Assembly (NCBI GenBank): GCA_030601865.1
Contig: JAUWAW010000002.1
Coordinates: 7,410-71,409 of the forward strand
Length of the DNA: 64,000 bases
Direction: 5' to 3'
DNA from: Candidatus Nealsonbacteria bacterium
GTDB lineage: Bacteria > Patescibacteriota > Minisyncoccia > Minisyncoccales > JAUWAW01
Shown: positions 7,433 to 59,221 of the stretch, piece by piece
How the letters are laid out: the number at the start of each line of letters is the position of its first letter
Position numbering within the stretch: the stretch's first letter is position 1
Made by a program: the position numbers and the translations under genes
The notes under the pieces: generated by a model
What the model saw: only the letters and a program-made list of their open reading frames with translations
Told to the model about the DNA's origin: nothing
The model's database searches: none

Positions 7433-7886
7433 GCAAAAACAAACCCTTCAAGCCGGTTGTTTCCTCTGTCTCTCTTCTTACTTTCAAATCGGTTTTCAAT
7501 AAAACAATCTCGCCGGTCACGCTCACCGTGCCTTTTATAAAATGCCCGCCAACAGCTCTTTTTTGTTTATTGCCTAAAACTGCGTGTAAATGAAATTCGT
7601 ATTGACCATCTTGCCCGCCCGCCTCGCTATGCGAAGCATTGCGGGCAGGTAAAGAAACATTGCCTGTTAACAATAGAAGTTCGTGGGGTTCGGTAAATTT
7701 TTCTGGCAGATAATTGCCTTTTTCTTTGAAAAAGCCCAACTCAAACTCGCCCAACTGGCCCAAGCCCGACAAAATAACAGCAGTTTCAATGTTATATTTT
7801 CGGCAAACTTTTTCCAAACTTTCAAAAATCTCCTCTCCGGGAAAAAGCCGCGCAAATATTAAATTATCCTTTTCTTTGCTTTGCAT
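7425..7886 (-). CDS. PPC (DUF296) domain DNA-binding protein
   Basis: ARLFPGEEIFESLEKVCRKYNIETAVILSGLGQL ... HLHAVLG is the PPC/DUF296 pattern. It carries an in-frame GC-rich hairpin insert (see 7611-7648). Confidence 0.7.
   Translation of the reverse strand: MQSKEKDNLIFARLFPGEEIFESLEKVCRKYNIETAVILSGLGQLGEFELGFFKEKGNYLPEKFTEPHELLLLTGNVSLPARNASHSEAGGQDGQYEFHLHAVLGNKQKRAVGGHFIKGTVSVTGEIVLLKTDLKVRRETEETTGLKGLFLHE
7611..7648. repeat. GC-rich hairpin element, copy E1, in frame in the DUF296 gene
   Basis: TGCCCGC...GCGGGCA outer stem with an ATGCGAAGCAT inner mini-hairpin. Translated as PARNASHSEAGG. Homologous to 48982-49019. Confidence 0.7.
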
Positions 7887-9926: not shown

Positions 9927-9931
9927 TTTTA

Positions 9932-10035
9932 ATCACCAAGATACAAGATACAATAACCAAACAAATTTCAATAATCAATCACCAAAAGATTTGGTTATTG
10001 GTGTTTGGTTATTGTTTGTTTCTTGTTTCTTGGTT
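9932..10035. repeat. Long imperfect hairpin, copy B1
   Basis: The 5' arm ATCACCAAGATACAAGATACAATAACCAAACA... is mirrored by ...TGTTTGGTTATTGTTTGTTTCTTGTTTCTTGGT. Homologous to 63347-63471. Confidence 0.7.
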
Positions 10036-10503: not shown

Positions 10504-10699
10504 AAAAAATCCCGCTTCAAGCGAGATAGGATGACCCTACTCTTTACTCGAAGAGAATTAGGTTAAAATTTTTATGGCGGCATTCTGGCTTTTTACCCAG
10601 TTAAATAATTTCGCCTCTGGCGAAATTGCTGCGGAGCAGCATTTAACCGGGTGAACAGTTGCGGTACAGCTCAGGAATTACACCTGATTTCTCACCATT
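10504..10699 (-). promoter_or_regulatory. Cobalamin (B12) riboswitch with terminator expression platform
   Basis: The minus-strand RNA reads GAGAAAUCAGGUGUAAUUCCUGAGCUGUACCGCAACUGU (core GGUG..AAUUCC..GCNG..CCGCNACUGU). B12 box AAGCCAGAAUGCCGCC (plus coords 10576-10590). Terminal CUCGCUUGAAGCGGG + UUUUUU (10504-10525). Confidence 0.65.
10596..10651. repeat. Three-way-junction repeat, copy A2 (embedded in the riboswitch variable region)
   Basis: CCCAGTTAAAT | AATTTCGCCtctGGCGAAATT | GCTGCggaGCAGC | ATTTAACCGGG. Differs from copy A3 at only 3 positions. Confidence 0.75.
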
Positions 10700-17196: not shown

Positions 17197-17259
17197 ATAT
17201 AAGAACCTTTCGTCGCTTCGCTCCTCAAGAACCTTGATTCGCTAAGGTATAAATATATA
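17197..17259. repeat. 60-nt repeat, copy G1 (reverse orientation), directly 5' of tRNA-Arg(CCU)
   Basis: The reverse complement reads TATATATTTATACCTTAGCGAATCAAGGTTCT-TGAGGAGCGAAGCGACGAA-AGGTTCTTATAT. It matches 31619-31676 except for the core. Confidence 0.7.
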
Positions 17260-17403
17260 GTCTTAAATTAAGATACCATATTTCTGACTTGTTGACAACA
17301 GATTCTTTTGCTATAATTACAAGCGAGGAAGAAATACAAAAATTTATTCTTGTATTTCGACCGAGCGAGTAATTATTTACTGAACAGGAACACAATAAAA
17401 CAT

Positions 17404-18531: not shown

Positions 18532-20841
18532 ATGGTATACAATCCTCAAAAAATTGAGCGGAAATGGCAGAGGGTTTGGGAAGAAGCCGGGATTTTTAAA
18601 ACCTCTGACAAGATTAAGGGCAAGAAGAATTTTTATCATCTGGTAATGTTTCCCTATCCTTCAGGGGATTTACACATTGGCCATTGGTATAATTTCGCTC
18701 CGGCTGATGTTTATGCCCGCTTCAAAAGAATGCAGGGTTTTAATGTAATGAGCCCGATTGGCTTTGATGCCTTTGGTTTACCTGCTGAAAACGCAGCTAT
18801 TAAACACGGTATCCATCCCAAAACCTGGACTTATAAAAATATTGAGAGGATGAGAAAACAATTAAAATCAATGGGTACGATTTATGATTGGCAAAGAGAA
18901 ATTATTACCTGTGACCCAGATTATTATAAATGGACCCAGTGGTTGTTTCTCCAATTTTACAAAGCCGGCTTGGCCTACCGCGCAAAAGTGCCAGCCAATT
19001 GGTGCCCCTCCTGTAAAACAATTTTAGCCAACGAACAAGTCATTGAGGGCAAATGTGAAAGGTGCGACTCAGATGTTTTGCAAAAAGAAATTGAACAATG
19101 GCTTTTTAAGATTACTGATTATGCTGAAAAGTTGCTCAAAGACCTGGATAAATTGGACTGGCCCGAGAGAACAAAAACGATGCAAAAGAATTGGATCGGG
19201 AAGTCCGAGGGCTATGAAATTAAATTTTCATCAATCCCTGTCTTCACTACGCGGCTTGACACCATATTTGGATGTACCTACTTGGTTTTGGCACCAGAAA
19301 ATCCAATCATTGAAAAATTAAAAAACAAAATTACCAATTACCAAGAAGTTAAAAGATACATTGAGAAGTCAAAGAAAAAAACAGAAAGAGAGCGCCTCAG
19401 CGAAGCAAAAGAGAAAACCGGGGTTGAAATCAAAGGAGTAAAAGCAATAAATCCAGCTAACGGAGAAAAGATTCCCATCTGGATGGCTGACTATGTTCTG
19501 ATAGGCTATGGCACTGGCGCTATTATGGCAGTACCTGACCGCGATGAACGCGACATGGAATTTGCCAAAAAATACAATCTGCCAATTAAAAAAACAAGGT
19601 TAGTTGATAGTAAAAAAATTGCTAAGAAAGTTAAAGGCAAAAAGATAACTAATTACAAGCTTCGCGATTGGGTAATTTCTCGCCAGAGATACTGGGGAGT
19701 GCCTATTCCAATGGTAAAATGCCAGAAATGCGGCTGGGTACCTGTTCGGGAGAAAGATTTACCAGTATTGCTGCCGACCCTAAAAGATTTCCGGCCAACT
19801 GGTAAGGGCAAATCCCCCTTGGCCAAATCAAAAAAATTCGTTCAAACAAAGTGTCCAAAATGTAAAGAATTAGCAGAAAGGGAAACCGACACTATGGATA
19901 CTTTTGTCTGCTCCTCCTGGTATTATTTAAGATACACTGACCCTAAGAATAAAAAGAAATTTGCTGACCCCAAAAAATTAAAGGCCTGGTTGCCGGTTGA
20001 TATGTATATAGGGGGCGCCGAGCATACAGTGATGCATCTTTTATACGCCCGATTTTTTACCAAGGCCTTGCAAAAACTTGGCATTTTAGATTTTTCAGAG
20101 CCGTTTTTACGGTTGCGCCACCAAGGAATTATCTTGGGTCCCGACGGTCAAAAAATGTCAAAATCCAGAGGAAATGTTATAGACCCGGATATTCAAGTTA
20201 AAAAATATGGTGCTGATGCGGTCAGAATGTATCTCTGTTTTATGGGACCCTATGACCAAGGGGGTCCTTGGCAGCCAAGAGGGATTGTGGGCATAGCAAG
20301 GTTCTTAGACAAAATTTTCAATTTTCAATTTTCAATTTTCAATGACCAAAATTCTAAACTTAAAAAGCTATTACATAGAACAATTAAGAAAGTCACGGAG
20401 GATATTGAAAACTTTCGGTTTAATACGGCGATTTCAGCTTTAATGATTTTGGTCAATGAGATGCAGAAACAAAAAGGTCTAGAACCCGAGGTTAGACCTA
20501 CATTATTAAAATTACTGGCGCCCTTTGCCCCGCACTTTGCCGAAGAACTCTGGTCCTCCTTCGCTAAAGCTTCGGAGGATAAACATTTTGATATTAAAAA
20601 TTCAGTTCACAATCAGAAATGGCCCAAGTATAATCCAAAACTAATTAAAGAAGAAATGATAACTTTGATTATCCAGGTCAATGGCAAGGTACGAGCCAAA
20701 ACAGAAACAGAAGCAGGTATTTCAAAAGAAAAAGCTAAAGAACTTGCTTTATCTTGTGAAAAAGTGCGAAAATGGACAGAGGGCAAGAAAATAAAGAAAA
20801 TAATCTTTGTGCCAGATAAATTAATCAATATTGTAATATGA
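18532..20841 (+). CDS. leuS: Leucyl-tRNA synthetase
   Basis: HIGH motif (PSGDLHIGHWYN), KMSKS (QKMSKSRGN), CP1 and Zn-finger CxxC pairs. Carries in-frame repeat inserts at 20314-20341 and about 20553-20580. Confidence 0.92.
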   Translation: MVYNPQKIERKWQRVWEEAGIFKTSDKIKGKKNFYHLVMFPYPSGDLHIGHWYNFAPADVYARFKRMQGFNVMSPIGFDAFGLPAENAAIKHGIHPKTWTYKNIERMRKQLKSMGTIYDWQREIITCDPDYYKWTQWLFLQFYKAGLAYRAKVPANWCPSCKTILANEQVIEGKCERCDSDVLQKEIEQWLFKITDYAEKLLKDLDKLDWPERTKTMQKNWIGKSEGYEIKFSSIPVFTTRLDTIFGCTYLVLAPENPIIEKLKNKITNYQEVKRYIEKSKKKTERERLSEAKEKTGVEIKGVKAINPANGEKIPIWMADYVLIGYGTGAIMAVPDRDERDMEFAKKYNLPIKKTRLVDSKKIAKKVKGKKITNYKLRDWVISRQRYWGVPIPMVKCQKCGWVPVREKDLPVLLPTLKDFRPTGKGKSPLAKSKKFVQTKCPKCKELAERETDTMDTFVCSSWYYLRYTDPKNKKKFADPKKLKAWLPVDMYIGGAEHTVMHLLYARFFTKALQKLGILDFSEPFLRLRHQGIILGPDGQKMSKSRGNVIDPDIQVKKYGADAVRMYLCFMGPYDQGGPWQPRGIVGIARFLDKIFNFQFSIFNDQNSKLKKLLHRTIKKVTEDIENFRFNTAISALMILVNEMQKQKGLEPEVRPTLLKLLAPFAPHFAEELWSSFAKASEDKHFDIKNSVHNQKWPKYNPKLIKEEMITLIIQVNGKVRAKTETEAGISKEKAKELALSCEKVRKWTEGKKIKKIIFVPDKLINIVI
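20314..20341. repeat. Tandem heptamer ATTTTCA x4, in frame in leuS
   Basis: Read as FNFQFSIFN. Same 7-nt periodicity as the ATTCGTR arrays elsewhere. Confidence 0.7.
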
Positions 20842-22526
20842 AGAAAATTCTATTAGGTAATGAGGCGATTGTCAGGGGTGCTCTGGAAGCAGGGGTCAAT
20901 TTTGTTTCTACTTATCCTGGCACACCGGCTTCAGAGATTGGCAATACTTTTTACAAAATCGCCAAAGAAGCTGGGGTTTACCCCCACACCAAACGGGGGC
21001 AAGGCGCCAAAATTGACGAAGTCAGCCCCCGTTCTGGTGTGGGGGTCTATTTTGAATTTTCAACCAATGAAAAAGTGGCTTTGGAAGCTGGGATAGGAGC
21101 CAGTTTTTCCGGTCTTAAAACCTTAGTGGCCATGAAGCATTTTGGCCTTAATGTGGCCTCTGATAGTTTAATGCCTTTTTGTTATACGGGCAGCAAGGGA
21201 CCAACTGTAATTGTCGTAGCTGATGATCCTAACTGCTGGAGTTCAGCTCAATCAGAGCAAAACTCAAGGGCTTATTCTTATTTAGCCCACATTCCTACTT
21301 TAGAACCCTCTGACCCTCAGGAGTGCAAGGATTTCATTAAATTGGCCTTTGAAATTTCTGAAAAATTTAACCTGCCTATCTTAATCAGATTAACTACCCG
21401 CGTCAGCCACCAACGCGCCCCCGTTAAACTCGGCAAACTATCGGGAAGCCATCCCGATAAAGCAAGGTTTGTCAAAGAGCCACAAAGGTTTGTCACTATG
21501 CCGCCCCGAGTTCTGGAAATGAAAAAAGAACTTTTTAAAAAAATAGAAAAAATAAAAGAATTTTCCGAAAAAACCTTTATCAATAAAATAAGTTTGTTGA
21601 CATCGGATGTCAACAAACAAAAGACCGGCATCATCACTTCAGGAGTTTCTTATTTGTATGTAATGGAGGCATTGGAAGAATTAAAAATAGATTTGCCGGT
21701 TTTGAAACTGGGATTCTTTTATCCTCTGTCAGAAAAGAAAATTAAAGATTTTATTAAAAATCTTAAAAAGGTTCTGACAGTTGAAGAATTAGAACCATAT
21801 CTTGAAAAGGAAATAACAGCTTTAGCTAAATCTGTAAATCCTGGACTACAAATCTATGGCAAAGCTCTTTTGCCTGAGGTCGGAGAGTTGAAACCTGACC
21901 ATGTAGTTGCAGCTTTAGCTACTGTGCTTAAAACTCACGATCGTAGAGTTTTAGCACAGCGGGCTGATTTGCCCAAGTTTCCAAAACGTTTGCCAAATCT
22001 ATGTCCTGGTTGCCCTTACTGGCTTGTTTTTGGTGCAGCAAAGAAAGCAGTCGATTTTAAGAAAGTAATCTTTGGCGGTGACATTGGCTGCTATATGTTA
22101 GCTGGCTTGCCACCTCACAATATCCAGGATTATCTTTCTTGCATGGGTTCTTCTATTGGTATAGCTCATGGAATCAAGAAAGCTACCGCCGGGCAACAAA
22201 AACTTATTGCTTTTATTGGCGATTCCACTTTTTTCCATGCGGGCATCCCTGCTTTAATCAACACCGTCTTTAACAAGTCAAACCCCTTAATTATTGTGAT
22301 GGATAACCAAACCATGGCTATGACCGGCCACCAACCTCACCCCGGCGCGCCAGCCAAGCCAGATGGAATAAAAATTGAGAATATTGTCAAAGCCTGCGGC
22401 GTTAAAAATCTAAAAGTGATTGACCCCATCAAACAAAAAGAATTAATAAAAACAATTAAAGAATTTTTAAACAAAAAACAGGTCTCGGTAATTATTGCCC
22501 GAAGACCCTGTATATTTGTAAAATGA
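20838..22526 (+). CDS. iorA: Indolepyruvate:ferredoxin oxidoreductase alpha subunit (TPP-binding)
   Basis: N-terminal GNEAIVRGALEAGVNFVSTYPGTPASEI; CPGCPYW; TPP motif GDSTFFHAG. 4-nt overlap with iorB. Two in-frame palindromic inserts. Confidence 0.8.
   Translation: MKKILLGNEAIVRGALEAGVNFVSTYPGTPASEIGNTFYKIAKEAGVYPHTKRGQGAKIDEVSPRSGVGVYFEFSTNEKVALEAGIGASFSGLKTLVAMKHFGLNVASDSLMPFCYTGSKGPTVIVVADDPNCWSSAQSEQNSRAYSYLAHIPTLEPSDPQECKDFIKLAFEISEKFNLPILIRLTTRVSHQRAPVKLGKLSGSHPDKARFVKEPQRFVTMPPRVLEMKKELFKKIEKIKEFSEKTFINKISLLTSDVNKQKTGIITSGVSYLYVMEALEELKIDLPVLKLGFFYPLSEKKIKDFIKNLKKVLTVEELEPYLEKEITALAKSVNPGLQIYGKALLPEVGELKPDHVVAALATVLKTHDRRVLAQRADLPKFPKRLPNLCPGCPYWLVFGAAKKAVDFKKVIFGGDIGCYMLAGLPPHNIQDYLSCMGSSIGIAHGIKKATAGQQKLIAFIGDSTFFHAGIPALINTVFNKSNPLIIVMDNQTMAMTGHQPHPGAPAKPDGIKIENIVKACGVKNLKVIDPIKQKELIKTIKEFLNKKQVSVIIARRPCIFVK
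20981..21045. repeat. CCCCCACACC stem-loop element, copy D1, in frame in iorA
   Basis: 20-bp stem CCCCCACACCAAACGGGGGC / GCCCCCGTTCTGGTGTGGGGG (one bulge) with a 24-nt loop. Translated as PHTKRGQGAKIDEVSPRSGVG. Confidence 0.8.
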
Positions 22527-23224
22527 TGAATAAAACATTCAATATGGTAATTGTGGGCACCGGGGGGCAAGGAGTGATTACGGTTTTGCGGATTTTGGCT
22601 GAAGTAGCCCTTATTGAGGGCTATGATGTCAAAACTTCAGAACTCCACGGCCTCAGCCAAAGAGGGGGCTCGGTTGAGGTTCATATTAAATTTGGCAACA
22701 AAATACACTCTCCCCTGGTAGCTCAAGGCAAAGCCGACTTAATCTTGGGCTTAGAAATGCAGGAATGCTTGAAATCTTGCTATTTTGTTCACCCCCACAC
22801 CAAACGAGAACAAGATGCCAAGGGCACCAAAATTGACAAGGTCAGTTCTCGTTATGGTGTGGGGGCAAACTCAAAAACAAGTTTTTTAATCAATGATTAT
22901 CTTATCCCCATACTTTCCTGCCCGCCAGAGCCTTCGGCTCAAGCCGATGGCAGGCGGGTTCAAAAACCCTGGCCAAAAAACAAAATTCTAAAGACCTTGA
23001 AAAATTGGACAAAAGATATTACTCTAACTCCAGCAGCAAAAATCTGTGAAAAAGAATTGGGCACAAAGGTAGTTGTTGGAGTCTATCTATTAAGCTTGGC
23101 TGCTTTCAAAAAACTGGTACCAATTAAACCTGCCTCAATTCTTAAAGCAATGAAAAAAGTCTTGCCCTCAAAATATCTTGAATTAAACAAAAAAACCTTT
23201 AATTTAGCGAGAAAAAATGATTAA
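22523..23224 (+). CDS. iorB: Indolepyruvate oxidoreductase beta subunit
   Basis: VGTGGQGVITVLRILAEVALIEGYDVKTSELHGLSQRGGSV is the IorB/gamma-domain pattern. Two in-frame repeat inserts. Confidence 0.75.
   Translation: MMNKTFNMVIVGTGGQGVITVLRILAEVALIEGYDVKTSELHGLSQRGGSVEVHIKFGNKIHSPLVAQGKADLILGLEMQECLKSCYFVHPHTKREQDAKGTKIDKVSSRYGVGANSKTSFLINDYLIPILSCPPEPSAQADGRRVQKPWPKNKILKTLKNWTKDITLTPAAKICEKELGTKVVVGVYLLSLAAFKKLVPIKPASILKAMKKVLPSKYLELNKKTFNLARKND
22792..22865. repeat. CCCCCACACC stem-loop element, copy D2, in frame in iorB
   Basis: Stem CCCCCACACCAAACGAGAAC / GTTCTCGTTATGGTGTGGGGG with a 33-nt loop. Translated as PHTKREQDAKGTKIDKVSSRYGVG. Confidence 0.8.
22917..22958. repeat. GC-rich hairpin element, copy E3, in frame in iorB
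   Basis: CCTGCCCGCC ... GGCAGGCGGG with inner GAGCCttcGGCTC. Translated as CPPEPSAQADGRRV. Confidence 0.55.
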
Positions 23225-23939: not shown

Positions 23940-25345
23940 TTGAATCTTTCTCCGGGGTGCGCGGTATCTGGGGAAAAGGGCTTAATGAAGAATTGGCCAG
24001 AAACTATGCCTGCGCTTACAGCCATCTTTTGGCTAAACAGTTGGGCAGAAAACTGCGCCTAATCATTGGCTACGACCCTCGCGCCTCAAGTAAAGAAATC
24101 GCCCAAATATTTCGGGCTGGTTTTTCTTTTAAGGCAGAAAAAATTATTGATGTAGGCATACTAGCTAAAGCAGCTGTGGAATTGGGAGTAAGAACCTATA
24201 AATTAGATGGCGGGGTTATGATAACAGCCAGTCATAGTCCCAAAGAATTCAATGGCTGGGAACTTTTAGATAAAACAGGAGCGATTATTTCTCCAAGTTT
24301 TTTAGAGAAAGTTATCCGGTTGAGAAAGAAAATTAAAGTTTCTAAACCCACCACCGCTTTTGAAACAAAAATGGTAGAGGACAAACAGCAAGACCTGAAA
24401 AACCTTTATATCAATTTTGCCAAGCAAATTATTGGCAAAAAGGGATTAGACGCAATCCAAAAAAGACACTTTAACATTGTAGTTGACCCAAATGGAGGCG
24501 CGGCCGTATCTTTAATAAAGCAATTTTGCCAAAGATTAGGAGTTAAGAGCCGTTATCTGAATATGGAACCGGGTAAATTTGCCCGAAAAATTGAGCCGGA
24601 TTTTGAGTCGCTCAATTATTTAAAAGAAATAATTAAAAAAGAAAAGGCGGATTTTGCCATCGGCTTTGACTGCGATGCTGACCGAGCAGAGATTGTTTTG
24701 AAGGATGGTTCAATGGTTAATGGACAATATATTTTAGCAATCTCGGTTGAGGAAATCTTGTCCGGCCTAAAAAACCCTCAAGGCAAAATTGTTATTACCA
24801 ATGATTGCACCTCCAACTTGGTCAGAAGGGTAGCTGAAAAATATGACGCCAAAGTAAAAGAAGTTGAAATTAGCGAGATAAATGTGGTTAATAAAATGTA
24901 TCAAGAAAATAGCCCTATTGGCGGGGAGGGTTCAGCTTCAGGGGCCATTTTTCCACCTTCCCGCTGCCGCGATGGGTTTCTAAGTTTAGCAATTATTCTG
25001 CGGTATTTAGCAAGGAAGCAAAAAACATTGGCTGAGGCGCTTGATGAATTTCCTGACTTTTACAGTTTTCGCGACAAACTTAAATGTCCTCCGGAAAAAC
25101 AAATTCAGGTTCGGCAGAGTATCAAAAACTACCTTTTAGACCACGGTTTCAAAATCCAAGAAAGAGGAGGAAAAACAGGCACGGTCAAGGCATTAATTGA
25201 CAAAGATTCTTTTATCTTCTTCCGCGCTTCCAAAACAGAACCCGGGGTCTTCCGAATTATCTCTGACGCCCCAGACAAACAAAAAGCAAAAAAACTGCTG
25301 AAACAAGGCATTGAAATCTTCAATAACCAATTATCTAATATTTAA
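23924..25345 (+). CDS. Alpha-D-phosphohexomutase (phosphoglucosamine/phosphomannomutase family)
   Basis: Active-site loop TASHSPKEFNG, metal loop FDCDADR, SFSGVRG at the N-terminus. The ATG at 23924 is preferred over the track start at 23870. Confidence 0.8.
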   Translation: MSKGLVESFSGVRGIWGKGLNEELARNYACAYSHLLAKQLGRKLRLIIGYDPRASSKEIAQIFRAGFSFKAEKIIDVGILAKAAVELGVRTYKLDGGVMITASHSPKEFNGWELLDKTGAIISPSFLEKVIRLRKKIKVSKPTTAFETKMVEDKQQDLKNLYINFAKQIIGKKGLDAIQKRHFNIVVDPNGGAAVSLIKQFCQRLGVKSRYLNMEPGKFARKIEPDFESLNYLKEIIKKEKADFAIGFDCDADRAEIVLKDGSMVNGQYILAISVEEILSGLKNPQGKIVITNDCTSNLVRRVAEKYDAKVKEVEISEINVVNKMYQENSPIGGEGSASGAIFPPSRCRDGFLSLAIILRYLARKQKTLAEALDEFPDFYSFRDKLKCPPEKQIQVRQSIKNYLLDHGFKIQERGGKTGTVKALIDKDSFIFFRASKTEPGVFRIISDAPDKQKAKKLLKQGIEIFNNQLSNI

Positions 25346-25358
25346 ATAACTCACGATC

Positions 25359-25967
25359 GTGAGCTATAACATCAATAATAATTTTGACAAAACCTTAGCA
25401 AAAGCAGTAAACGTTATTAAACAAGGTAAGGTTTTGCTTTGCCCCTCGGACACGGTTTATGGCTTGATTTGCGACGCCCACAACGAAAAAGCAGTGTGTG
25501 CTCTTTTTGAAATCAAAAAAAGGCCTTTTGAAAAAGCCATTGCTCTTTTTATCAAAGACATTAAAATGGCTAAAAAACATGCCTATATTGATAAAAAACA
25601 AGAAGCGATATTAAAGAAAGTTTGGCCCGGAAAAATAACAGTTATTCTAAAAAGACAAAAAAGTTGCCGACTTCCCAGAATTCTTTTCGCTAATACAAAA
25701 GTAATTGGCCTACGGGTGCCGAATCACAAATTTCTTAATGACTTACTTAAAAAATTAGATGCTCCTTTGGCCGAAACATCAGCTAACATCTCAGGCAAAC
25801 CCGCTTCAACAAAAATAAGAGAAGTTTTAAAGCAATTTGGAAAAGAAAAACGCCAGCCCGATTTAGTTCTGGATGCTGGCGACTTAGAACCTTCTCTTCC
25901 TTCAACCGTCATTGATTTAACCACAAAAAAGATAAAAGTTTTAAGAAAAGGTGCTATTGTTTTTTAA
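25359..25967 (+). CDS. tsaC: L-threonylcarbamoyladenylate synthase (YrdC/TsaC/Sua5 domain)
   Basis: PSDTVYGLICDA, GLRVPNH, ETSANISGKP motifs. The GTG start lies inside a CTCACGATCGTGAG palindrome. Confidence 0.8.
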   Translation: MSYNINNNFDKTLAKAVNVIKQGKVLLCPSDTVYGLICDAHNEKAVCALFEIKKRPFEKAIALFIKDIKMAKKHAYIDKKQEAILKKVWPGKITVILKRQKSCRLPRILFANTKVIGLRVPNHKFLNDLLKKLDAPLAETSANISGKPASTKIREVLKQFGKEKRQPDLVLDAGDLEPSLPSTVIDLTTKKIKVLRKGAIVF

Positions 25968-26106: not shown

Positions 26107-26120
26107 AAAAAAACCAGTTT

Positions 26121-26177
26121 ACCCAGTTAAATAATTTCGCCTTTGGCGAAATTGCTGTGAAGCAGCATTTAACCGGG
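26121..26177. repeat. Three-way-junction repeat, copy A3
   Basis: ACCCAGTTAAAT | AATTTCGCCtttGGCGAAATT | GCTGTgaaGCAGC | ATTTAACCGGGT. Confidence 0.75.
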
Positions 26178-26236
26178 TTTAACCTGTTTAACATAATCAT
26201 TTTGTATTCTAAACTTATTCTACTTTTTTGTCAAAA

Positions 26237-30468: not shown

Positions 30469-30507
30469 AATACGCCATAATTCTGCCATGGCTTTCTTAC
30501 GGCGTAT
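30469..30507. repeat. AATACGCC palindrome, copy C1
   Basis: AATACGCCATAATTCTGCCATGGCTTTCTTACGGCGTAT. It supplies the spurious upstream ATG (30488) of the next ORF. Confidence 0.75.
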
Positions 30508-30523
30508 ATGTTATAATGAGATA

Positions 30524-31108
30524 ATGACTAAATATAAATATTATTTTAGGAAACCGAGGTCGGAAATTGTTAAAGATGTTCTTTCGTGGTTAATGGTGGC
30601 TGGAATGATTTATATAGCTGCCGGTTCTCCGTATTTTGTTGCAAATGTTTCAAAAAGCTTTAAGAAGGCGCGAAAATATAAAAAGAAAAGGGTCTATGAT
30701 ACTTTTTATAAATTACAAAAACAAGGGTGCATTAAGATTACGAAGAAGAATAAGCAAATTTACATTAGCTTAACGGAAAAAGGTAGAAAGAAAGCGGGGT
30801 GGCTTCAGATAGATAGTTTGAAAATAAAAAGACCTAAAAAATGGGACGGCAAATGGAGAATAGTTATTTTTGACATTGCTCAACTTAAAAAAATGTATCG
30901 TGAGGCATTTCGAGGGAAATTAAAAGAGTTAGGATTTCGCCCCTTGCAAAAGAGTGTCTGGATTCATCCCTTTGACTGCCAAGATGAAATAGAACTCTTG
31001 AAAGATTTTTTCGGATTATCAGAAAAAGAAATGCGATTTATTGTTGCCCAAGACATTGGCCAAGACGATAAAATTAAAAAGAACTTTAACCTTTCACAAC
31101 CAAATTGA
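30524..31108 (+). CDS. PaaX-C-terminal-like domain protein with N-terminal TM/wHTH-like region
   Basis: KKWDGKWRIVIFDIAQLKKMYREAFRGKLKELGFRPLQKSVWIHPFDCQDEI is the W-G-W-(I/V)-FDI...GF..LQ.SVW..P pattern. The ORF is flanked by C1 and C2. Confidence 0.55.
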   Translation: MTKYKYYFRKPRSEIVKDVLSWLMVAGMIYIAAGSPYFVANVSKSFKKARKYKKKRVYDTFYKLQKQGCIKITKKNKQIYISLTEKGRKKAGWLQIDSLKIKRPKKWDGKWRIVIFDIAQLKKMYREAFRGKLKELGFRPLQKSVWIHPFDCQDEIELLKDFFGLSEKEMRFIVAQDIGQDDKIKKNFNLSQPN

Positions 31109-31127
31109 AAAGCAAACTAGGACACAC

Positions 31128-31167
31128 AATACGCCATAAGAAAGCCATGGCTTTTTTATGGCGTATT
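31128..31167. repeat. AATACGCC palindrome, copy C2 (inverted relative to C1)
   Basis: AATACGCCATAAGAAAGCCATGGCTTTTTTATGGCGTATT. Confidence 0.75.
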
Positions 31168-31176
31168 GGTAAAGCA

Positions 31177-31248
31177 ATGCAAGTTGTTCCTAACCTCGAC
31201 TTTAAACACGCGGCTGAAATCCGCGACTTGATTAAAAAATTAAAATAA
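31177..31248 (+). pseudogene. Orphan UVR-motif mini-ORF (probable 3' remnant of uvrB or another UVR-domain gene)
   Basis: MQVVPNLDFKHAAEIRDLIKKLK resembles the UvrB C-terminal NLEFEEAAQIRDQL motif. There is no upstream body; it starts right after repeat C2. Confidence 0.3.
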
Positions 31249-31265
31249 TTTAATATAAAATCACT

Positions 31266-31532
31266 ATGCCAATAACTAAGTCAGCTAAAAAAGCGTTGAG
31301 GCAGAATATAAAGAGGAGGAAGCGAAATATTCAGAGGAAAAGGAAAATAAAAGACCTTATCAAAGAGGTGAGGAATTTAGTTGCTCAAAAAAAGATTGAA
31401 CAAGCCAAAAAACTCCTGCCCAAAATTTACAAGGCCTTAGATAAAACAGCCAAAGTCGGCGTCATAAAAAAGAATACCGCCAGCCGAAAAAAATCAAGAA
31501 TAACAAAACTGACCGCGAAGCGGTCACCCTGA
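31266..31532 (+). CDS. rpsT: 30S ribosomal protein S20
   Basis: MPITKSAKKALRQNIKRRKRN... is a typical S20 basic helical protein. Confidence 0.85.
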   Translation: MPITKSAKKALRQNIKRRKRNIQRKRKIKDLIKEVRNLVAQKKIEQAKKLLPKIYKALDKTAKVGVIKKNTASRKKSRITKLTAKRSP

Positions 31533-31595
31533 GGAGGCCGAAGGCCGACGAAGGGTCTCGTGACTTAACAACGGGATTCTTCGGCTTCGCCTCAG
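31529..31595. repeat. GC-rich imperfect hairpin overlapping the rpsT stop (terminator/repeat)
   Basis: CTGAGG-AGGCCGAAGGCCGACGAAGG...CTTCGGCTTCG-CCTCAG. Shares TGAGGAG(G)CCGAAG(G)CCGACGAA(A/G)GG with the core of repeat G1. Confidence 0.55.
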
Positions 31596-31618
31596 AATGA
31601 CAGTTTCTTAATTCAAGA

Positions 31619-31676
31619 TTATATATTTATACATTAGCGAATCAAGGTTCTGCGAGCAAAGTGAGCAGGTTCTTAT
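31619..31676. repeat. 60-nt repeat, copy G2
   Basis: TATATATTTATACATTAGCGAATCAAGGTTCT-GCGAGCAAAGTGAGC-AGGTTCTTATAT. Confidence 0.7.
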
Positions 31677-35464: not shown

Positions 35465-36201
35465 TTTTCTGCTACAATATAGAAATTGGAGTTTGGGCTT
35501 TTCTCGCGGGAAACAATGATTTGGTCGCTCTTTTTTATGTTAAGCTCTACTTTCCCAATTAGTCCTTCCAGTTCTTTTTTAGTAAAACAATGAAAGTAAC
35601 ATTTGGGCAGACCTGCAAAAGGAATTATAATATCATTGGAACCACACTTCCTTTTAGGATGACTCCGCAAATTCCAAACTGTCAAAATCAACAATCCCTT
35701 GGGTCGCAGCACTCGCTTTGCTTGTCTTAGAAACTTCAACCGTAAGGCCTCTGACGGAATATGGTGCAGCACAGCAATGCTGTAAATCTTGTCAAAAAAA
35801 TTCTTGGGAAAAGGCAAATTCAAAGCGTCAGCTACCTGAAATTTTGCCTTTGGGTACTTGTTTTTAGCAATCTCAATTAATTTTTCAGAATTATCCACGC
35901 CAATATAGTCAATATCCTTGTCTTTCAAAATCTCAAAAAATCTGCCATTGCCACAGCCCAAATCCAATACTTTGTCTCCGGGGACTAAATAATCGTCAAA
36001 CAAAAACCTGAATTCGTCCCAAACTTTCTGTCTTCTGCTTGAAAATTGTTGGGCAAATTTATTATAATATTGGTAATGTTTTTTTATGTCAATTTTAGAA
36101 AAAATAATTTTAGAACTATTAAAATCTCGTGTCAAAACCCGGGCTGATTTGGATTCGTTCAAAAGAAAAGTGGCCAAAGAGTATAAAACTCCCTGCCCCA
36201 C
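35455..36201 (-). CDS. Class I SAM-dependent methyltransferase (start uncertain)
   Basis: Motif I VLDLGCGNGRF and post-I DYIGVDNS. The track start overlaps elp3 by 116 nt. A TTGACA-17-TAAAAT promoter at about 36096-36124 suggests a shorter, non-ATG-initiated product. The last 3 codons overlap the tRNA. Confidence 0.65.
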   Translation of the reverse strand: MGQGVLYSLATFLLNESKSARVLTRDFNSSKIIFSKIDIKKHYQYYNKFAQQFSSRRQKVWDEFRFLFDDYLVPGDKVLDLGCGNGRFFEILKDKDIDYIGVDNSEKLIEIAKNKYPKAKFQVADALNLPFPKNFFDKIYSIAVLHHIPSEALRLKFLRQAKRVLRPKGLLILTVWNLRSHPKRKCGSNDIIIPFAGLPKCYFHCFTKKELEGLIGKVELNIKKSDQIIVSREKSPNSNFYIVAEKPL

Positions 36202-37741
36202 TAATGTAGAATTACTTAAAACTTACCACAAATTGGTTAAAAAGAAAAGGTTGAAGAAAGACGGGGTAATAGAAAAGTTGCTTTGCACCAGGCCTATTCG
36301 TTCGCTTTCTGGCATTGTTAATGTCTCTGTTTTAACTAAGCCCTATCCCTGCCCGGGTCAATGTATTTTCTGCCCCAGCCAAAAAGGCATTCCCAAAAGT
36401 TATTTAAGGGGCGAACCTGCGGTTCAAAGGGCGATTTTAAATAAGTTTAATCCCTATTCGCAGGTCCAAACACGGCTAAAAAGTTTGCAAAAAACAGGCC
36501 ACCCAATAGACAAAATTGAATTAAGAATAATCGGTGGAACCTGGTCTTATTATCCCAAACAATATCAAACCCGGTTTGTTAAAGAATGCTTCCAAGCTTG
36601 CAACGAATTTTCTCCCCTAAAACAAATACGCCATAAGAAAGCCATGGCAGAATTACGGCGTATTAAGGAAAAGGAATTGGAAAAAGAATTGAAGAAAGAG
36701 CAAAAAGCAAACGAGAAAGCCAAGTGTCGGGTGGTTGGAATAACAATTGAAACTAGGCCAGATTATATAGATATTAAAGAAATAAAGCGGATGAGAGAAC
36801 TGGGCATAACCAGGGTGGAATTGGGGGTGCAAAGCATTTACAATGATGTTTTGAAATTAAACAAAAGGGGCCATGGCATAGAAGCGACAATTAAAGCAAC
36901 CAAACTTCTGAAAGAGTCCGGCTTTAAGGTTTCTTATCAAATGATGCCCAATTTGCCCGGCAGTACCTCCAAAAAAGACGTAAAAATGTTTGAAGAGATT
37001 TTTGAAAACCCTGATTTCCAACCCGACCTCTTGAAAATTTATCCCTTGGCCTTGCTCAAAGAAGCTCCTTTGTATAAATGGTATCAAAGAGGAAAGTTTA
37101 AACCGTATTCTGATAAAAAATTAATTAAGCTTTTAATAGAAATCAAAAAGAAAATCCCTTATTGGTGCAGAATCCAAAGGGTAATCCGGGATATTCCCTC
37201 AGCAGATATTGTTGAAGGAGGAGTTAAAATCTCAAATTTAAGAGAAGTTGTTCAAAAAGAAATGAAGAAGCAAGGATTGAAATGCAAATGCATCAGATGC
37301 CGGGAGGTGAAAAAAGATTACAACTCCCAAGAAAAATCTGTGCTTTTTCGCCAGGACTATAATGCCTCTGGCGGCAAGGAGGTATTTCTGACTTTTGAAG
37401 ATAAAAAAAGACAAAAACTCTATGCTCTGCTCCGCCTGCGCATCCCCTATCCAAAAGTGGCAAAGGACAGTCCTCTGCCAATTCTGAAGGATGCGGCGAT
37501 AATTAGGGAGGTTCATACTTATGGTCAACTCCTACCCATTCAACACAGAGATAGGACGAAAATAGGACAGTCGCCTCAACATAAGGGGTTAGGCAAAAAA
37601 CTGATTAAGCAGGGAGAAGAAATCGCCAAACAAGAGTTTGGCACAAAAAAAATAGCCGTCATCTCCGGCGTGGGAGTCAGGGCATATTACAGAAAACTCG
37701 GCTATCACCTGAAGGATACTTATATGATTAAAAAACTGTAA
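36086..37741 (+). CDS. elp3: Elp3-type radical SAM/GNAT tRNA U34 modification enzyme
   Basis: Radical-SAM cluster region PCPGQCIFCPS, VVGITIETRPD, RVELGVQS, and C-terminal GNAT QHKGLGKKLIKQGEEIA. Confidence 0.85.
   Translation: MSILEKIILELLKSRVKTRADLDSFKRKVAKEYKTPCPTNVELLKTYHKLVKKKRLKKDGVIEKLLCTRPIRSLSGIVNVSVLTKPYPCPGQCIFCPSQKGIPKSYLRGEPAVQRAILNKFNPYSQVQTRLKSLQKTGHPIDKIELRIIGGTWSYYPKQYQTRFVKECFQACNEFSPLKQIRHKKAMAELRRIKEKELEKELKKEQKANEKAKCRVVGITIETRPDYIDIKEIKRMRELGITRVELGVQSIYNDVLKLNKRGHGIEATIKATKLLKESGFKVSYQMMPNLPGSTSKKDVKMFEEIFENPDFQPDLLKIYPLALLKEAPLYKWYQRGKFKPYSDKKLIKLLIEIKKKIPYWCRIQRVIRDIPSADIVEGGVKISNLREVVQKEMKKQGLKCKCIRCREVKKDYNSQEKSVLFRQDYNASGGKEVFLTFEDKKRQKLYALLRLRIPYPKVAKDSPLPILKDAAIIREVHTYGQLLPIQHRDRTKIGQSPQHKGLGKKLIKQGEEIAKQEFGTKKIAVISGVGVRAYYRKLGYHLKDTYMIKKL
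36625..36664. repeat. AATACGCC palindrome, copy C3, in frame in elp3
   Basis: AATACGCCATAAGAAAGCCATGGCAGAATTACGGCGTATT, translated as IRHKKAMAELRRI. Confidence 0.75.
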
Positions 37742-39093: not shown

Positions 39094-39398
39094 TGCTTTG
39101 ACGAAGATACCTTACCAGAATTTTAACCTTTTGTCAAACTCTGTTTCAATCTGCTCCGATCGGAGTAATTTGAAACGCTTTACCAAAAAATAAAAATGTT
39201 TAAAACTCACGATCGTGAGTTATTTAAACAAAGAAAAATATAATAGCCGTCCCGCAAGGAACGGCGGATAAGTTCACTGAGAGAAAATGCCTCCAGTAAA
39301 ACCGATTTTCCCTCTGTTTGCTGCTTCATTACAATTGCCCCCTTTCTGTTCTATGAGGTTTCTCTTTCTTCACAAATTGGTAAAGTTCTAATCTCCTG

Positions 39399-45142: not shown

Positions 45143-45482
45143 AGTTAAAAGAGGTAAAATCGCGCATAAACGTCGCAAGGCGGTATTAAAACACACCAAA
45201 GGTTTCCGTTGGGGTAGAAAAAGCAAATACAAAGCAGCTAAAGAGGCGCTTTTGCATGCTTGGAAATACGCTTATCGCGACCGCAGAACCAAAAAAAGGG
45301 ACTTCCGCCGCCTTTGGCAAACCCAAATCAATGCTGCCTGCCGCCAGCATGGTTTATCTTATAGTAAATTCATCCATGGCCTCAAACAAAAAAAGATTGA
45401 GCTTGACCGAAAAATCTTAGCCCAACTTGCTCGAGAGAAACCGAAAATTTTTGCAAAAATTATAGAAACAGTAAAGAAATAA
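45135..45482 (+). CDS. rplT: 50S ribosomal protein L20
   Basis: MVRVKRGKIAHKRRKAVLKHTKGFRW. The ATG at 45135 is preferred over the track start at 45093. Confidence 0.9.
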   Translation: MVRVKRGKIAHKRRKAVLKHTKGFRWGRKSKYKAAKEALLHAWKYAYRDRRTKKRDFRRLWQTQINAACRQHGLSYSKFIHGLKQKKIELDRKILAQLAREKPKIFAKIIETVKK

Positions 45483-45492
45483 TTTTATCACA

Positions 45493-45516
45493 CTTTTCCT
45501 ACGATCGTAGAAAAAG
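45493..45516 (+). terminator. CGATCG-centred palindrome acting as rplT terminator
   Basis: CTTTTCCTACGATCGTAGAAAAAG. Confidence 0.5.
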
Positions 45517-45546
45517 TAGTATAAAATACGGGGAATTTTGCTATTT

Positions 45547-47120: not shown

Positions 47121-48665
47121 TTATTTTAGCGCTTCGTAAAACTTTGCCCAATCAAAATTCCAGGGGTCAGTTTTGCGGTCGGGCGCTATTTGATTGTGGC
47201 CCAAAATATAATTTATTTTATATTTTGTCTTTAAAAACTTAACTAAACTGCCAAGCGAATTATACTGCTCCTTGGTAGGAGTATCAGATTTTGAGTTAAC
47301 TAATTCAATACCAATAGAAAAATTATTGACATTGGTTCTACCGTCAGGCATTTTGCTAACACCGGCGTGATAGGCAATATCTTTATCGAGCGCCAAACGA
47401 TAAATGGTCCCATCACGCGCAATAAGATAGTGTGGTAAGACACCATAGAGTTTATATTCTTGAATAATGCCATCAATATTATAGGGATTTTCACCAAGGG
47501 CGTCGTAAGAGGAGTGAATAATGATGGTGTCAATTAAACGGGGAGACAATGGTGTATGGTGCCCCCAAGCAAGAATTCTATTGACAACATTAAGAGGGGT
47601 TTCTGAATCTTTTATTTCCAGGGTTTCGGTTGGTTTCTCTTCAGTTTTTTCTGGCTGGAAGTATTTGTTAATTTTAATATCTTGGGGGATTACTTGTTCT
47701 ATTTTGCCATTTTTGATGATTACTTTCAGTAAAATGCTTTTCAGGGTTTCTTCAGAAAAGTCCTGGTCAAAAACAAAGTCGCCCAAACTGTAGGCAATCC
47801 AGCCCTCTTTGTATTTTTCTATTTTTTGGACGACATGAGGATGGTGTCCTACTACTAAATCAGCGCCGGCCTCAATGCTGGCTTGAGCAAAAGAAATTTG
47901 AAAAGGCGTGGGTTTTAACGAATACTCCGTCCCAGCATGTAAAGAAACAACCAAAATATCTACTGCTTGCTTGAAGTTTTCAATATCTGCTTGAATGGCT
48001 TCTAAGCTCTTTTCATCAATCCAGGCAAGACCAGGACTTTCTCGCTGTGCCATCCATGTTTTTGGGCCTAAATTAGTGTAAGCCAAAAATCCAACCCTCA
48101 CGCCTTCCGTCTCTTTTATCTTTACTGAGAAGGCCTCTTCTCTGTTAAATCCAGCGCCAATATAATCTATGCCATTTCCTTTTAAAATCATCATTGTCTC
48201 TTTTAAGGCTGTGCTTTGGTAATCAAGCATGTGATTGTTGGCTAAAGACAAAATATCAAAACCAGCAAAAGTAAGTCCTTCTATGGCCTCTGGTCTGAAT
48301 CTGAAAGAACAAATACTGCCCACCTTTATACCCTTATCTGAAATTGGTCCTTCTAAATTACCGAATAAAATATCTGCTTTTTTAAGTTCTTCAGCTATTT
48401 TCAAAAAGGGAAATCTAAAATCCCCTTCCCCGTATTTTTCTATCATATATTCCACTCCTCGGTTTAACATAATATCTCCTACCAGAAAAAGGGTAATCTC
48501 TGGGGCCTCTGGAATGTCTTTGAAGGCAAACTCAAGAGAAAAATCAATAGCAGCTTGTTGGTTCTCTATTAAAAACTCTTTAGCTGGCAAAATAAAACTT
48601 AAAACAAAAAACCCCCCAGCTAAAACCAAAATGACAGTTAGAGTGGCTAATGTAAACCTTTGCAT
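47121..48665 (-). CDS. CapA/PGA-type metallophosphatase domain fused to N-acetylmuramoyl-L-alanine amidase (Amidase_2/PGRP) domain, membrane anchored
   Basis: CapA motifs FLVGDIMLNRGV, ANNHMLDY, GHHPHVVQ. Amidase_2 motifs IIIHSS, HYLIARDGTIY, AYHAG, SIGIEL, GHNQIAPDRKTDP. Confidence 0.75.
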   Translation of the reverse strand: MQRFTLATLTVILVLAGGFFVLSFILPAKEFLIENQQAAIDFSLEFAFKDIPEAPEITLFLVGDIMLNRGVEYMIEKYGEGDFRFPFLKIAEELKKADILFGNLEGPISDKGIKVGSICSFRFRPEAIEGLTFAGFDILSLANNHMLDYQSTALKETMMILKGNGIDYIGAGFNREEAFSVKIKETEGVRVGFLAYTNLGPKTWMAQRESPGLAWIDEKSLEAIQADIENFKQAVDILVVSLHAGTEYSLKPTPFQISFAQASIEAGADLVVGHHPHVVQKIEKYKEGWIAYSLGDFVFDQDFSEETLKSILLKVIIKNGKIEQVIPQDIKINKYFQPEKTEEKPTETLEIKDSETPLNVVNRILAWGHHTPLSPRLIDTIIIHSSYDALGENPYNIDGIIQEYKLYGVLPHYLIARDGTIYRLALDKDIAYHAGVSKMPDGRTNVNNFSIGIELVNSKSDTPTKEQYNSLGSLVKFLKTKYKINYILGHNQIAPDRKTDPWNFDWAKFYEALK

Positions 48666-49105
48666 AAAAATTTATTTGCTTTTTTAAGGATTTCTTTGGT
48701 GTTTTTGAAAGTTAATTGCTCTAGTGCCTGCTCATAAGCCAGCCATTTGTAACCAATATGTTCATAGGAAATTTTGACCTCTTTTGTTTTTGTTTCAGCT
48801 AGAAGATAGGTGACGATTTTAAAGATGTTTTTGTTCTCCTGTTTGTAAAAATACTTAATCCATTCTTTAAAACCCTCAATAAATTTAATATCTTCTATGC
48901 CTGTTTCTTCTTTGGCTTCCCTTAAGGCAGTTTGCTCCAAACTCTCGCCTTGCTCAATATGTCCCTTAGGAAATCCCCAATGCCCGCCCACATCGCTACG
49001 CGAAGCGTTGCGGGCGGGTCCCAACCCATAATGTAAAAGAAGGTAATGGAGCTCATTACCTTCTCTTCTAAATATAACAACGCCGGCTGATTTTTCTAAA
49101 GGCAT
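48647..49105 (-). CDS. Nudix hydrolase (Ap4A-hydrolase-like)
   Basis: WGFPKGHIEQGESLEQTALREAKEETGI Nudix box, interrupted upstream by the in-frame GC-rich hairpin E2. Confidence 0.75.
   Translation of the reverse strand: MPLEKSAGVVIFRREGNELHYLLLHYGLGPARNASRSDVGGHWGFPKGHIEQGESLEQTALREAKEETGIEDIKFIEGFKEWIKYFYKQENKNIFKIVTYLLAETKTKEVKISYEHIGYKWLAYEQALEQLTFKNTKEILKKANKFLCKGLH
48982..49019. repeat. GC-rich hairpin element, copy E2, in frame in the Nudix gene
   Basis: CCCGCCC...GGGCGGG outer stem with inner ACGCGAAGCGT. Translated as PARNASRSDVGG. Confidence 0.7.
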
Positions 49106-51909: not shown

Positions 51910-51945
51910 TGTGTCAAAATCCTGCGATCGCAGGATTTTGACACA
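51910..51945. repeat. Perfect 36-nt palindrome centred on GCGATCGC, copy H7
   Basis: TGTGTCAAAATCCTGCGATCGCAGGATTTTGACACA. Identical to 59186-59221, including the flanks TTT...GTTTT. Confidence 0.85.
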
Positions 51946-59185: not shown

Positions 59186-59221
59186 TGTGTCAAAATCCTG
59201 CGATCGCAGGATTTTGACACA
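59186..59221. repeat. Perfect 36-nt palindrome centred on GCGATCGC, copy H8
   Basis: Identical to 51910-51945. Confidence 0.85.

Follow-up and report, generated by a model that had tools for sequence, protein, structure and literature searches.

A gene bracketed by composite palindromes

The stretch of DNA analysed here (the window, 64,000 nucleotides (nt) of contig JAUWAW010000002.1 from Candidatus Nealsonbacteria bacterium) contains a gene for a small basic protein with a Cas2-like domain, bracketed by two copies of a 40-nt composite palindrome, C1 upstream and C2 downstream, and a third copy, C3, lies in frame within elp3. The features on which the analysis rests are given below in order of position; loci outside the window are cited by their L numbers.

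30469..30508, no strand assigned: C1, the upstream composite palindrome, AATACGCCATAA-TTCT-GCCATGGC-TTTC-TTACGGCGTATA
30509..30517, plus strand: putative extended -10 element, TGtTATAAT, read from the sequence, agreeing with the family-wide geometry and conserved in the orthologs L004 and L120
30524..31108, plus strand: gene for a 194-amino-acid (aa) protein with an N-terminal KYKYYFRKP motif, a hydrophobic helix, a winged helix-turn-helix (wHTH), a Cas2-like PaaX_M domain and a short C-terminal tail, as drawn from homologs, Pfam and an AlphaFold 2 (AF2) model
31128..31167, no strand assigned: C2, the downstream palindrome, AATACGCCATAA-GAAA-GCCATGGC-TTTT-TTATGGCGTATT
31168..31248, plus strand: 3' remnant of uvrB, GKAMQVVPNLDFKHAAEIRDLIKKLK followed by a stop codon, with a PF02151 (UVR) match of 20.6 bits (cut-off 21.5) and homology to the UvrB end of L120
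36625..36664, no strand assigned: C3, the dispersed palindrome within elp3, AATACGCCATAA-GAAA-GCCATGGC-AGAA-TTACGGCGTATT

In each 40-nt copy, two arms of 11-12 nt enclose two 4-nt spacers, and between the spacers lies a palindromic centre of 8 bp (GCCATGGC). Arms and centre are nearly invariant among C1-C3 and the spacers vary (TTCT/TTTC in C1, GAAA/TTTT in C2, GAAA/AGAA in C3); C2, which begins 19 nt past the stop codon of the open reading frame (ORF), displays the greatest symmetry of the three. The three copies reported in the initial annotation were confirmed, as the 24-nt core pattern, with up to three mismatches, matched in the window only C1 (30485-30508, minus strand), C2 (both strands) and C3 (36625-36648), with a chance expectation of 0.00 in 100 shuffles, and the 12-nt arm pattern gave nine matches against 0.29 expected, six of them being the arms of C1-C3. 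A repeat search grouped the copies as a single direct family and also as inverted pairs, C1 and C2 being 84% identical in direct and 88% in inverted alignment. The near-palindromic nature of each copy leaves hardly any relative orientation to define, and what there is resides in the spacers alone; the mutual inversion of C1 and C2 that had been annotated is therefore weakly defined. Exact scans of genome and metagenome contig collections with the window's own palindrome gave no match.

The RNA form of C2 makes a nearly perfect hairpin of 19 bp (-28.7 kcal/mol, z = -8.4), and the folding of C3 and of the minus strand of C1 is likewise better than that of shuffled sequences. No intrinsic terminator was found at C2, where no T-run follows (the next bases are GGTAAAGC) and the terminator scan returned a weak 7-bp sub-stem on the minus strand only. 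No Rfam family reached the gathering threshold at the palindromes, the matches being chance-level miRNA and snoRNA hits with E about 0.2.

A PaaX-like protein that is neither PaaX nor Cas2

The ORF called mechanically at this position has 206 aa and begins at ATG 30488, in the centre of C1. This start codon was rejected by comparison with homologs, which measure 189-195 aa and begin at M-x-KYKYYF, and the true start is therefore ATG 30524, yielding a 194-aa protein whose net charge is +27. The search for homologs, which are about 190 aa long, returned 1,928, the best 120 displaying 66-81% identity, and in their alignment FDI and QxSVW are among the invariant positions, together with many charged residues in addition to the Asp of FDI, which is D117 of the 194-aa protein.

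Domain searches gave one strong match, to the central Cas2-like domain PaaX_M (PF20803; residues 117-194 of the 206-aa ORF, with E 4.9e-20 and a score of 71.9 bits where the cut-off is 24), beyond which the protein terminates after about 12 residues. Upstream of this domain only weak wHTH matches (TrmB, PadR) were obtained, all below cut-off, and neither the PaaX N-terminal domain (PF07848) nor PaaX_C (PF08223) was reported in the protein at E <= 1. The PaaX equivalog model TIGR02277 scored 41.8 bits (cut-off 264.55) and the Cas2 model TIGR01573 scored 15.3 (cut-off 24.5); the Cas2 models of PADLOC matched with E about 2e-4 across just 35 residues, and PADLOC and PHROGs together returned only weak Cas2 or regulator matches. 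In the AF2 model, the Cas2-like part reaches a predicted local distance difference test (pLDDT) value of 75-87 and the remainder is weak; a Foldseek search with this model returned E. coli PaaX (8a39) as the best match, then Rv0674 and a series of Cas2 structures occupying ranks 3-28. The protein has, in consequence of the absent PaaX N- and C-terminal domains and of PaaX and Cas2 scores far under their cut-offs, a PaaX-like architecture and belongs to neither PaaX nor Cas2. Of the 195-aa ORF of PaaX C-terminal/Cas2-fold type that had been annotated, the Cas2-like character stands and agrees with the structure prediction; the domain is PaaX_M, not PaaX_C, and the length is 194 aa.

Beyond PaaX_M and wHTH matches, Pfam and NCBIfam gave no HUH/Y1 transposase, integrase or recombinase domain, and a conserved H-u-H motif is absent from the alignment of homologs. 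By eye, no paa genes were recognisable among the ORFs of the window, and none among the called genes of the inspected homologous loci; likewise, no cas1-like ORF was recognisable by eye in the window's ORF list, and the repeat survey showed no arrayed repeats.

The bracket is conserved across the protein family

The palindrome-ORF-palindrome bracket is a genuine family-conserved unit. A scan of one genome per GTDB species yielded 80 loci, and brackets were counted on 78 of them; in this survey the family, constituted by small and very basic proteins with a wHTH and a Cas2-like domain, came almost wholly from Patescibacteria, and single genomes often hold 3-5 paralogs. In 57 of the 78 homologous loci, a segment with a score of 16 or more is common to both flanks, compared with 4 of 400 random locus pairs; the bracket is not confined to the window gene. 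This common segment is a palindrome of 32-46 nt with the build of C1-C3, locus-specific arms and 4-5-nt spacers, and its centre is mostly GCCATGGC, others including ACGATCGT, GCTATAGC, GCGATCGC and ACCATGGT. The upstream copy ends 1-35 nt ahead of the start codon and the downstream copy usually starts from -12 to +30 nt relative to the stop codon, the relative orientation of the two being mixed between loci. A census of the 1.15 Mb of fetched loci counted 58 strong palindromes, 44 of them no more than 200 nt away from a family gene.

The upstream copy overlaps the predicted promoter

In the window, the -10 element directly follows C1 and ends 7 nt before ATG 30524. Across the family, 23 of 64 upstream copies have a -10-like hexamer on the gene side, 16-18 nt past the centre of the palindrome, and 3 of 64 have one on the far side, the corresponding values for the two sides of the downstream copies being 8 and 5 of 52; moreover, the centre of the upstream copy contains the hexamer TTGCCA in 19 of 64 loci. 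At the level of sequence, the upstream copy supplies the -35 element and the spacer of the gene's own predicted promoter. The -10 element most often lies 7-9 nt from the ATG, a spacing which implies leaderless transcripts, and a leaderless transcript is accordingly predicted for the window gene. A two-fold symmetric site thus overlaps the core promoter of its own gene, as is characteristic of an autoregulated operator, binding to it being a prediction.

Arm sequences and zone symmetry

Paralogs of one genome differ in their arms, as in the five DAIRUS01 loci, and orthologs at about 80% identity or more have the same or nearly the same arms. The arms appear to track the predicted recognition helix: F-x-N-L helices occur with CGTA arms in 16 of 22 loci, compared with 2 of 40 for other helices (Fisher 3e-8, uncorrected for phylogeny), and Y-D/N-x-F-Y-K-L helices, including the window type Y-D-T-F-Y-K-L, pair with ATAC[GT]C arms, also in L037, L005, L017 and L028.

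Symmetry is distributed by zone, with about 90-100% in the centre, about 87-88% in the arms, and, in the spacers, 64-67% in flanking copies and 27% in intragenic ones. Arm mismatches show no clear G.U preference on the sense strand, and the half-sites vary independently at arm positions 8-9. This pattern fits what a two-fold duplex site with uncontacted spacers would predict, and what a selected RNA hairpin would not.

Dispersed and in-frame copies

The elp3 gene of the window (36086-37741, plus strand) contains C3 in frame, as had been annotated, and translates it as IRHKKAMAELRRI within the radical-SAM domain, in a hypervariable linker between ACNEF and NEKAKCR. At this codon position, five further Elp3 genes of metagenome loci (L091, L092, L099, L105 and L109) also contain palindromes, and their proteins are 62-72% identical to that of the window; two of these sequences are nearly identical, and the arms are group-specific with the symmetry kept. 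Two Elp3 orthologs (72% and 65%) bear, at the same codons, other mirrored arms, AATACGTGATAA-CATT-GCCATGGC-TAAA-TTAACACGTATT. With a position conserved across species, the elp3 copy is neither random nor stray.

A metagenome scan for the arm class ACGYNNTAA...GCCATGGC...TTANNRCGT returned 27 loci, 4 of which adjoin family genes and 3 more lie in Elp3 at the position described above. The other in-frame instances are located in pth (4), uvrC (4), a DUF72 gene (2), mnmA (1) and an unknown ORF (1), and several further loci lie at gene boundaries. At the def/pcm junction of L115 (2338-2371) and L116 (923-956), the ATG within a CCATGG centre is the start codon of pcm (MALIDSL...). Among the 18 intragenic instances tabulated, the window's included, 14 read IRxxxAMAxLxRI and the 4 uvrC copies use the other open frame. 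Two reading frames per strand are open across the palindrome, which is sited in variable loops, and this would explain why in-frame copies are tolerated; in MnmA the palindrome is a clear net insertion, and in DUF72 it replaces native residues with the length unchanged.

Additional copies of a locus's own palindrome, all intergenic, were found a few kb away in other genomes (L052, L047 and L088/L089). On one 300-kb contig, L097, beside a family gene, and L107, which is intragenic, share an identical 34-nt core, spacers included; similarly, the pth palindrome is identical at 38 of 38 positions between genes that are 79% identical overall. The uvrC site of L050, orthologous in position to that of L113, bears the arms of a family gene located 8 kb away on the same contig. 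Given this L050/L113 pair and the arm switches in Elp3, positions within host genes are kept while the arms follow the resident paralog.

A uvrB remnant and rearrangement at the locus

The bracketed gene of the window is preceded by ruvA and two small ORFs, and rpsT lies downstream. The orphan UVR-motif remnant noted initially next to C2 proved to be a uvrB 3' end: its 26 codons are homologous to ...EKEMKAAAKNFDFERAAEIRDLIQKLKGKTC and the stop codon of the L120 UvrB fragment, which matches PF12344 and PF02151. The remnant continues the reading frame of the C2 peptide, which is the AMA frame that most intragenic copies use, and a 33-codon ORF can be called from ATG 31147 across C2 and the remnant; a peptide search with this C2-UVR fusion found only the window's own 33-aa product. 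In L120, the closest ortholog (81% identity), an intact uvrB 3' end abuts the upstream palindrome, with the stop codon in its left arm. In L004 (75% identity), homology to the window's upstream flank extends about 100 nt past the palindrome, and jag, yidC, rnpA and dnaA lie downstream. The simplest reading is that a deletion or rearrangement would have occurred between two palindromes, one of which would have been in frame in uvrB before the UVR motif. As the flank homology of the window and L004 runs about 100 nt past C1, the left breakpoint does not coincide with the palindrome. An integron-like excision and integration, which would explain the hybrid half-sites and the in-frame uvrB remnant, was considered and not adopted, no recombinase having been found and no third palindrome after the remnant.

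The three closest orthologs thus stand in three different contexts, the lineage of the window being an exception to synteny: among 25 ortholog pairs of at least 78% identity, most retain homologous neighbours on both sides, and in one group the gene is turned round with respect to them. This inversion is seen in L005 compared with L013 and L009/L012, where the gene is turned among the same neighbours, and is consistent with recombination between flanking palindromes. No relative of the protein was found on viral contigs, no presence/absence polymorphism was found between close relatives, a limited search recovered no empty site, and target-site duplication was not evident in the few junctions read. 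Because most orthologs are syntenic and no viral-contig relatives exist among those searched, we regard the family as mainly a stable chromosomal resident.

Proposed model and alternative readings

Taking these results together, we propose, with a probability of roughly 0.55, that the window gene encodes a dimeric sequence-specific DNA-binding protein with cognate composite palindromes, which is self-repressed via the upstream copy; we infer the binding to the sites, the repression by binding, and the role of the downstream and dispersed sites. In favour of the model are the co-location of palindromes and family genes, the paralog-specific arms and their agreement with the recognition helix, the zone-wise symmetry, the promoter overlap, the PaaX-like fold and strong positive charge of the protein, the constraint on the pth, Elp3 and UvrC sites, and the stable chromosomal inheritance. 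According to this model, the protein would sit as a homodimer on one two-fold symmetric site of about 40 bp, the two winged helices reading the 11-nt outer arms and leaving the 4-nt spacers uncontacted, and the 8-bp centre would lie beneath the dimer axis or be shared with RNA polymerase. An occupied C1 would block the gene's own promoter, since the upstream copy constitutes the promoter region, and its occupancy would shut the gene off (autorepression). C2 would be a second cognate site at the 3' end, which may loop with C1 or act as a roadblock, and further cognate sites, here C3 in elp3, would be dispersed genome-wide. We also considered that the palindromes might be DNA-uptake sequences read by a receptor anchored in the membrane through the hydrophobic N-terminal helix; this was set aside in favour of a cytoplasmic DNA-binding role, because of the promoter overlap and the strongly basic C-terminal side.

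Several observations weigh against autorepression by a dedicated DNA-binding protein. The -35 match of the window in C1 is poor (CTGCCA), so the promoter call leans on the extended -10 element; the wHTH portion of the AF2 model is of low confidence (pLDDT about 60); and the helix following the conserved N-terminal motif is borderline hydrophobic (Kyte-Doolittle value 1.69) and resembles a signal peptide, which leaves the topology ambiguous. About a quarter of the loci display no clear bracket, and the correlation between arms and recognition helix is confounded by shared ancestry. Furthermore, simple autoregulation does not need a second full site tight at the 3' end of nearly every gene, a concerted arm change at all sites of a genome is hard to achieve via point mutation alone, and the identical or near-identical copies (L097/L107 and pth) resemble copied elements more than independent operators.

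A broader and rather unlikely reading, which we hold tentatively, is that Patescibacteria have long-lasting palindrome-protein partnerships, which would connect a Cas2-fold protein with palindromic repeats in a setting other than CRISPR and in which each gene encoding a wHTH and a Cas2-like domain would maintain, and possibly copy or convert, its own 36-44-bp palindromes, including in-frame copies in essential genes, analogous to the pairing of repetitive extragenic palindromes (REPs) with REP-associated tyrosine transposases (RAYTs) and with a Cas2-like protein in the latter role; the palindromes would then be rearrangement breakpoints, as at the uvrB remnant.

In the main rival reading, which is modelled on REP/RAYT systems and which we consider unlikely, the protein would copy, replace or homogenise within the genome the palindromes that flank its gene; these would be small non-autonomous repeats, inherited vertically together with it as a long-lasting pair; the wHTH would recognise the repeats, the Cas2-like domain would be a nuclease, and the dispersed and in-frame copies would be products rather than regulatory sites. 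The family resembles RAYTs, whose genes are enclosed by REPs, in the bracketing of the gene by a palindrome of its own, in the presence of several paralogs in one genome with a separate repeat family for each, and in a vertical inheritance that is typical of RAYTs too. The (near-)identity of dispersed copies, spacers included (L097/L107, pth, and the pair at 51910 and 59186 of the window), their presence within many unrelated housekeeping genes, and about ten palindromes of this build in the 64-kb window point the same way, and the switch of arms at orthologous host positions to the resident family suggests replacement or conversion; the invariant Asp of the Cas2 FDI motif and the many invariant charged residues count in its favour as well. 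Against this, neither an HUH/Y1 fold or motif nor any known recombinase fold was found in the protein, the copy number per family appears low, with few non-flanking strong palindromes in the 1.15 Mb around the genes, and neither presence/absence polymorphism nor, in the few junctions read, target-site duplication was found. In addition, within a genome the spacers are free while arms and centre are fixed, which fits selection on contact positions better than copying, and the DUF72 palindrome replaces residues without net insertion.

The initial annotation had favoured a cassette with terminal inverted repeats, C1-ORF-C2, inserted at this site; on this view, C3 would be a stray copy of one end. 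What stands of this proposal is the conserved bracket and the occurrence of a rearrangement, to which the uvrB remnant and the three ortholog contexts testify; a transposon-like insertion does not, and we regard the mobile cassette as improbable. In its favour are the tight bracket around one ORF, the differing surroundings of the closest orthologs (ruvA/rpsT in the window, jag/yidC/rnpA/dnaA in L004, uvrB in L120), the uvrB fragment adjoining C2, and the gene inverted against its neighbours in L005 relative to L013 and L009. It is contradicted by the flank of about 100 nt shared by the window and L004 past C1, the mixed orientation of the copies across loci, the synteny of most orthologs, the upstream repeat being the promoter region, the conserved position of C3, and the lack of a transposase or integrase domain and of relatives on viral contigs. 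None of the hallmarks of a transposon or a miniature inverted-repeat transposable element (MITE), namely fixed inverted ends, target-site duplication and empty sites, was found, the latter two in a limited search.

Finally, that the palindromes act as RNA hairpins, whether as 3' stabilisers, terminators or mRNA binding sites for the Cas2-like protein, is very improbable, for although C2 folds stably, downstream copies lie at the 3' end of genes, and other window palindromes lie between convergent genes, some with A/T tracts around the stem, the extended -10 element lies 3' of C1, which would therefore not be transcribed with the gene, C2 has neither a T-run nor an Rfam match, the half-sites vary independently, and RNA hairpin selection is set aside on account of the unpaired spacers and the lack of a clear G.U bias.

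Other repeats and genes in the window

About ten palindromes of the same build, belonging to at least five arm families, occur in the 64-kb window, and the phenomenon is therefore probably genome-wide. With dnaA, dnaN, rnpA, yidC and jag located at 54-59 kb, and with close relatives that are without exception metagenome-assembled genomes of Patescibacteria, the window has the look of a Patescibacteria chromosome segment. Two identical and perfect 36-nt palindromes of a different family, TGTGTCAAAATCCTGCGATCGCAGGATTTTGACACA, with the centre GCGATCGC, lie at 51910-51945, just past the polX stop codon, and at 59186-59221, where jag and a gene for a 503-aa protein converge; the window has no family gene near them, and their inner part resembles a bidirectional terminator (AAAA-stem-TTTT). 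Their cognate paralog is probably encoded elsewhere in the genome. Palindromes with CGATCG-type centres were found at 45482-45527, 39138-39182, 25341-25369, 39200-39228 and 21915-21944; one of these follows rplT, one is near a tRNA gene, a partial copy lies inside the por alpha-subunit gene, and a pair with AACTCACGATCGTGAGTT in common is located at gene junctions.

Between the convergent rpsT and holA genes (31530-31651), a long GC-rich hairpin, CCTGAGGAGGCCGAAGG...CTTCGGCTTCGCCTCAG, is followed by a 60-nt segment 87% complementary to a tRNA-adjacent segment (17228-17287), and no Rfam family reached the gathering threshold in this region. An intergenic direct repeat of 61 nt, TTTACCCAGTTAAATAATTTCGCC..., lies at 10592-10652 and 26118-26178 (95% identity); it contains two small hairpins and has no relation to the palindrome family. 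Short GC-rich peptide segments are found repeatedly in proteins that are otherwise unrelated (20838-23224, 7425-7886 and 48647-49105), with PHTKRGQGAKIDEVSPRSGVG and PHTKREQDAKGTKIDKVSSRYGVG in two adjacent oxidoreductase subunits, and ARNASHSEAGG and ARNASRSDVGG in two other ORFs; such recurrence hints at another type of in-frame insert that is repeated in this genome. In the N-terminal parts of two large secreted or membrane proteins, of 503 and 808 aa, a region of 237 nt is common to both at 78% identity (60386-60622 and 62967-63203), and low-complexity repeats of the GGTTATTG type occupy two distant intergenic sites (9930-10035 and 63349-63454).

Significance and comparison with known systems

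If the proposed model holds, many of the short palindromes of the reduced genomes of bacteria from the candidate phyla radiation (CPR) would be the cognate sites of one expanded protein family and not terminators or noise. The family would then offer protein-DNA specificity pairs for the study of recognition co-evolution, about 70 of which are already paired in the survey, and it would account for the unusual inserts of 13 residues, IRxxxAMAxLxRI, that conserved enzymes, Elp3, Pth and MnmA among them, contain. Further, the palindromes would point to one cause of broken assemblies and of rearrangements in such genomes. Should the Cas2-like domain act on the repeats, the family would constitute a second, independent link between the Cas2 fold and palindromic repeats, with a bearing on the origin of the CRISPR adaptation module. 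A full-text literature search returned no description of the family or of in-frame palindromic elements in CPR bacteria.

PaaX, the phenylacetyl-CoA-responsive repressor, represses by binding a palindromic operator at its target promoters. The window protein resembles it in the order of a winged helix followed by the Cas2-like PF20803 and has it as best structural match (8a39). The two differ in length, with about 305-316 aa in PaaX and 194 aa here, and in the lack, here, of PF07848, PF08223 and nearby paa genes; moreover, the present family is multi-copy and its genes are bracketed by their own 40-bp site. With Cas2 and VapD, the protein shares a ferredoxin-like fold, with the beta1 pattern x-x-V-x-F/Y-D-I and a Q-x-S-V-W/F strand; it falls, however, under the Cas2 cut-off and is fused to a wHTH, no cas1 or CRISPR array was recognised in the window, and the two "repeats" enclose a gene and not a spacer. 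Among site-specific centromere or nucleoid proteins of AspA/ParB type, too, a small wHTH protein is paired with a palindromic site upstream of the gene that encodes it and with additional sites on the chromosome, but here the AspA match is not significant (E 0.07), no partition ATPase is adjacent, and paralogs are many.

Among palindromic repeats, the closest parallel is with REP/RAYT systems, in which a chromosomal, vertically inherited gene is likewise flanked on both sides by a dispersed palindrome and several such pairs occur per genome. The systems differ in their protein, which here combines a wHTH with a Cas2-like domain instead of being an HUH/Y1 transposase, and in the copy number of the repeats, which appears lower here (three copies in the C1-C3 family, among about ten palindromes of the same build in 64 kb); many of the present copies are also intragenic, lack a GTAG head and have the composite arm-spacer-centre build. 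Rickettsia palindromic elements (RPEs) resemble the in-frame copies described above (elp3, pth, uvrC, mnmA, DUF72 and one unknown ORF), being inserted in frame in tolerant loops of unrelated housekeeping genes, where a short peptide is added or exchanged. They measure about 100-150 nt, whereas the present palindromes measure about 40 nt, and they occur in another phylum; in Patescibacteria, by contrast, the palindromes have a cognate gene which they flank, and genome-specific arms that change at conserved host positions.

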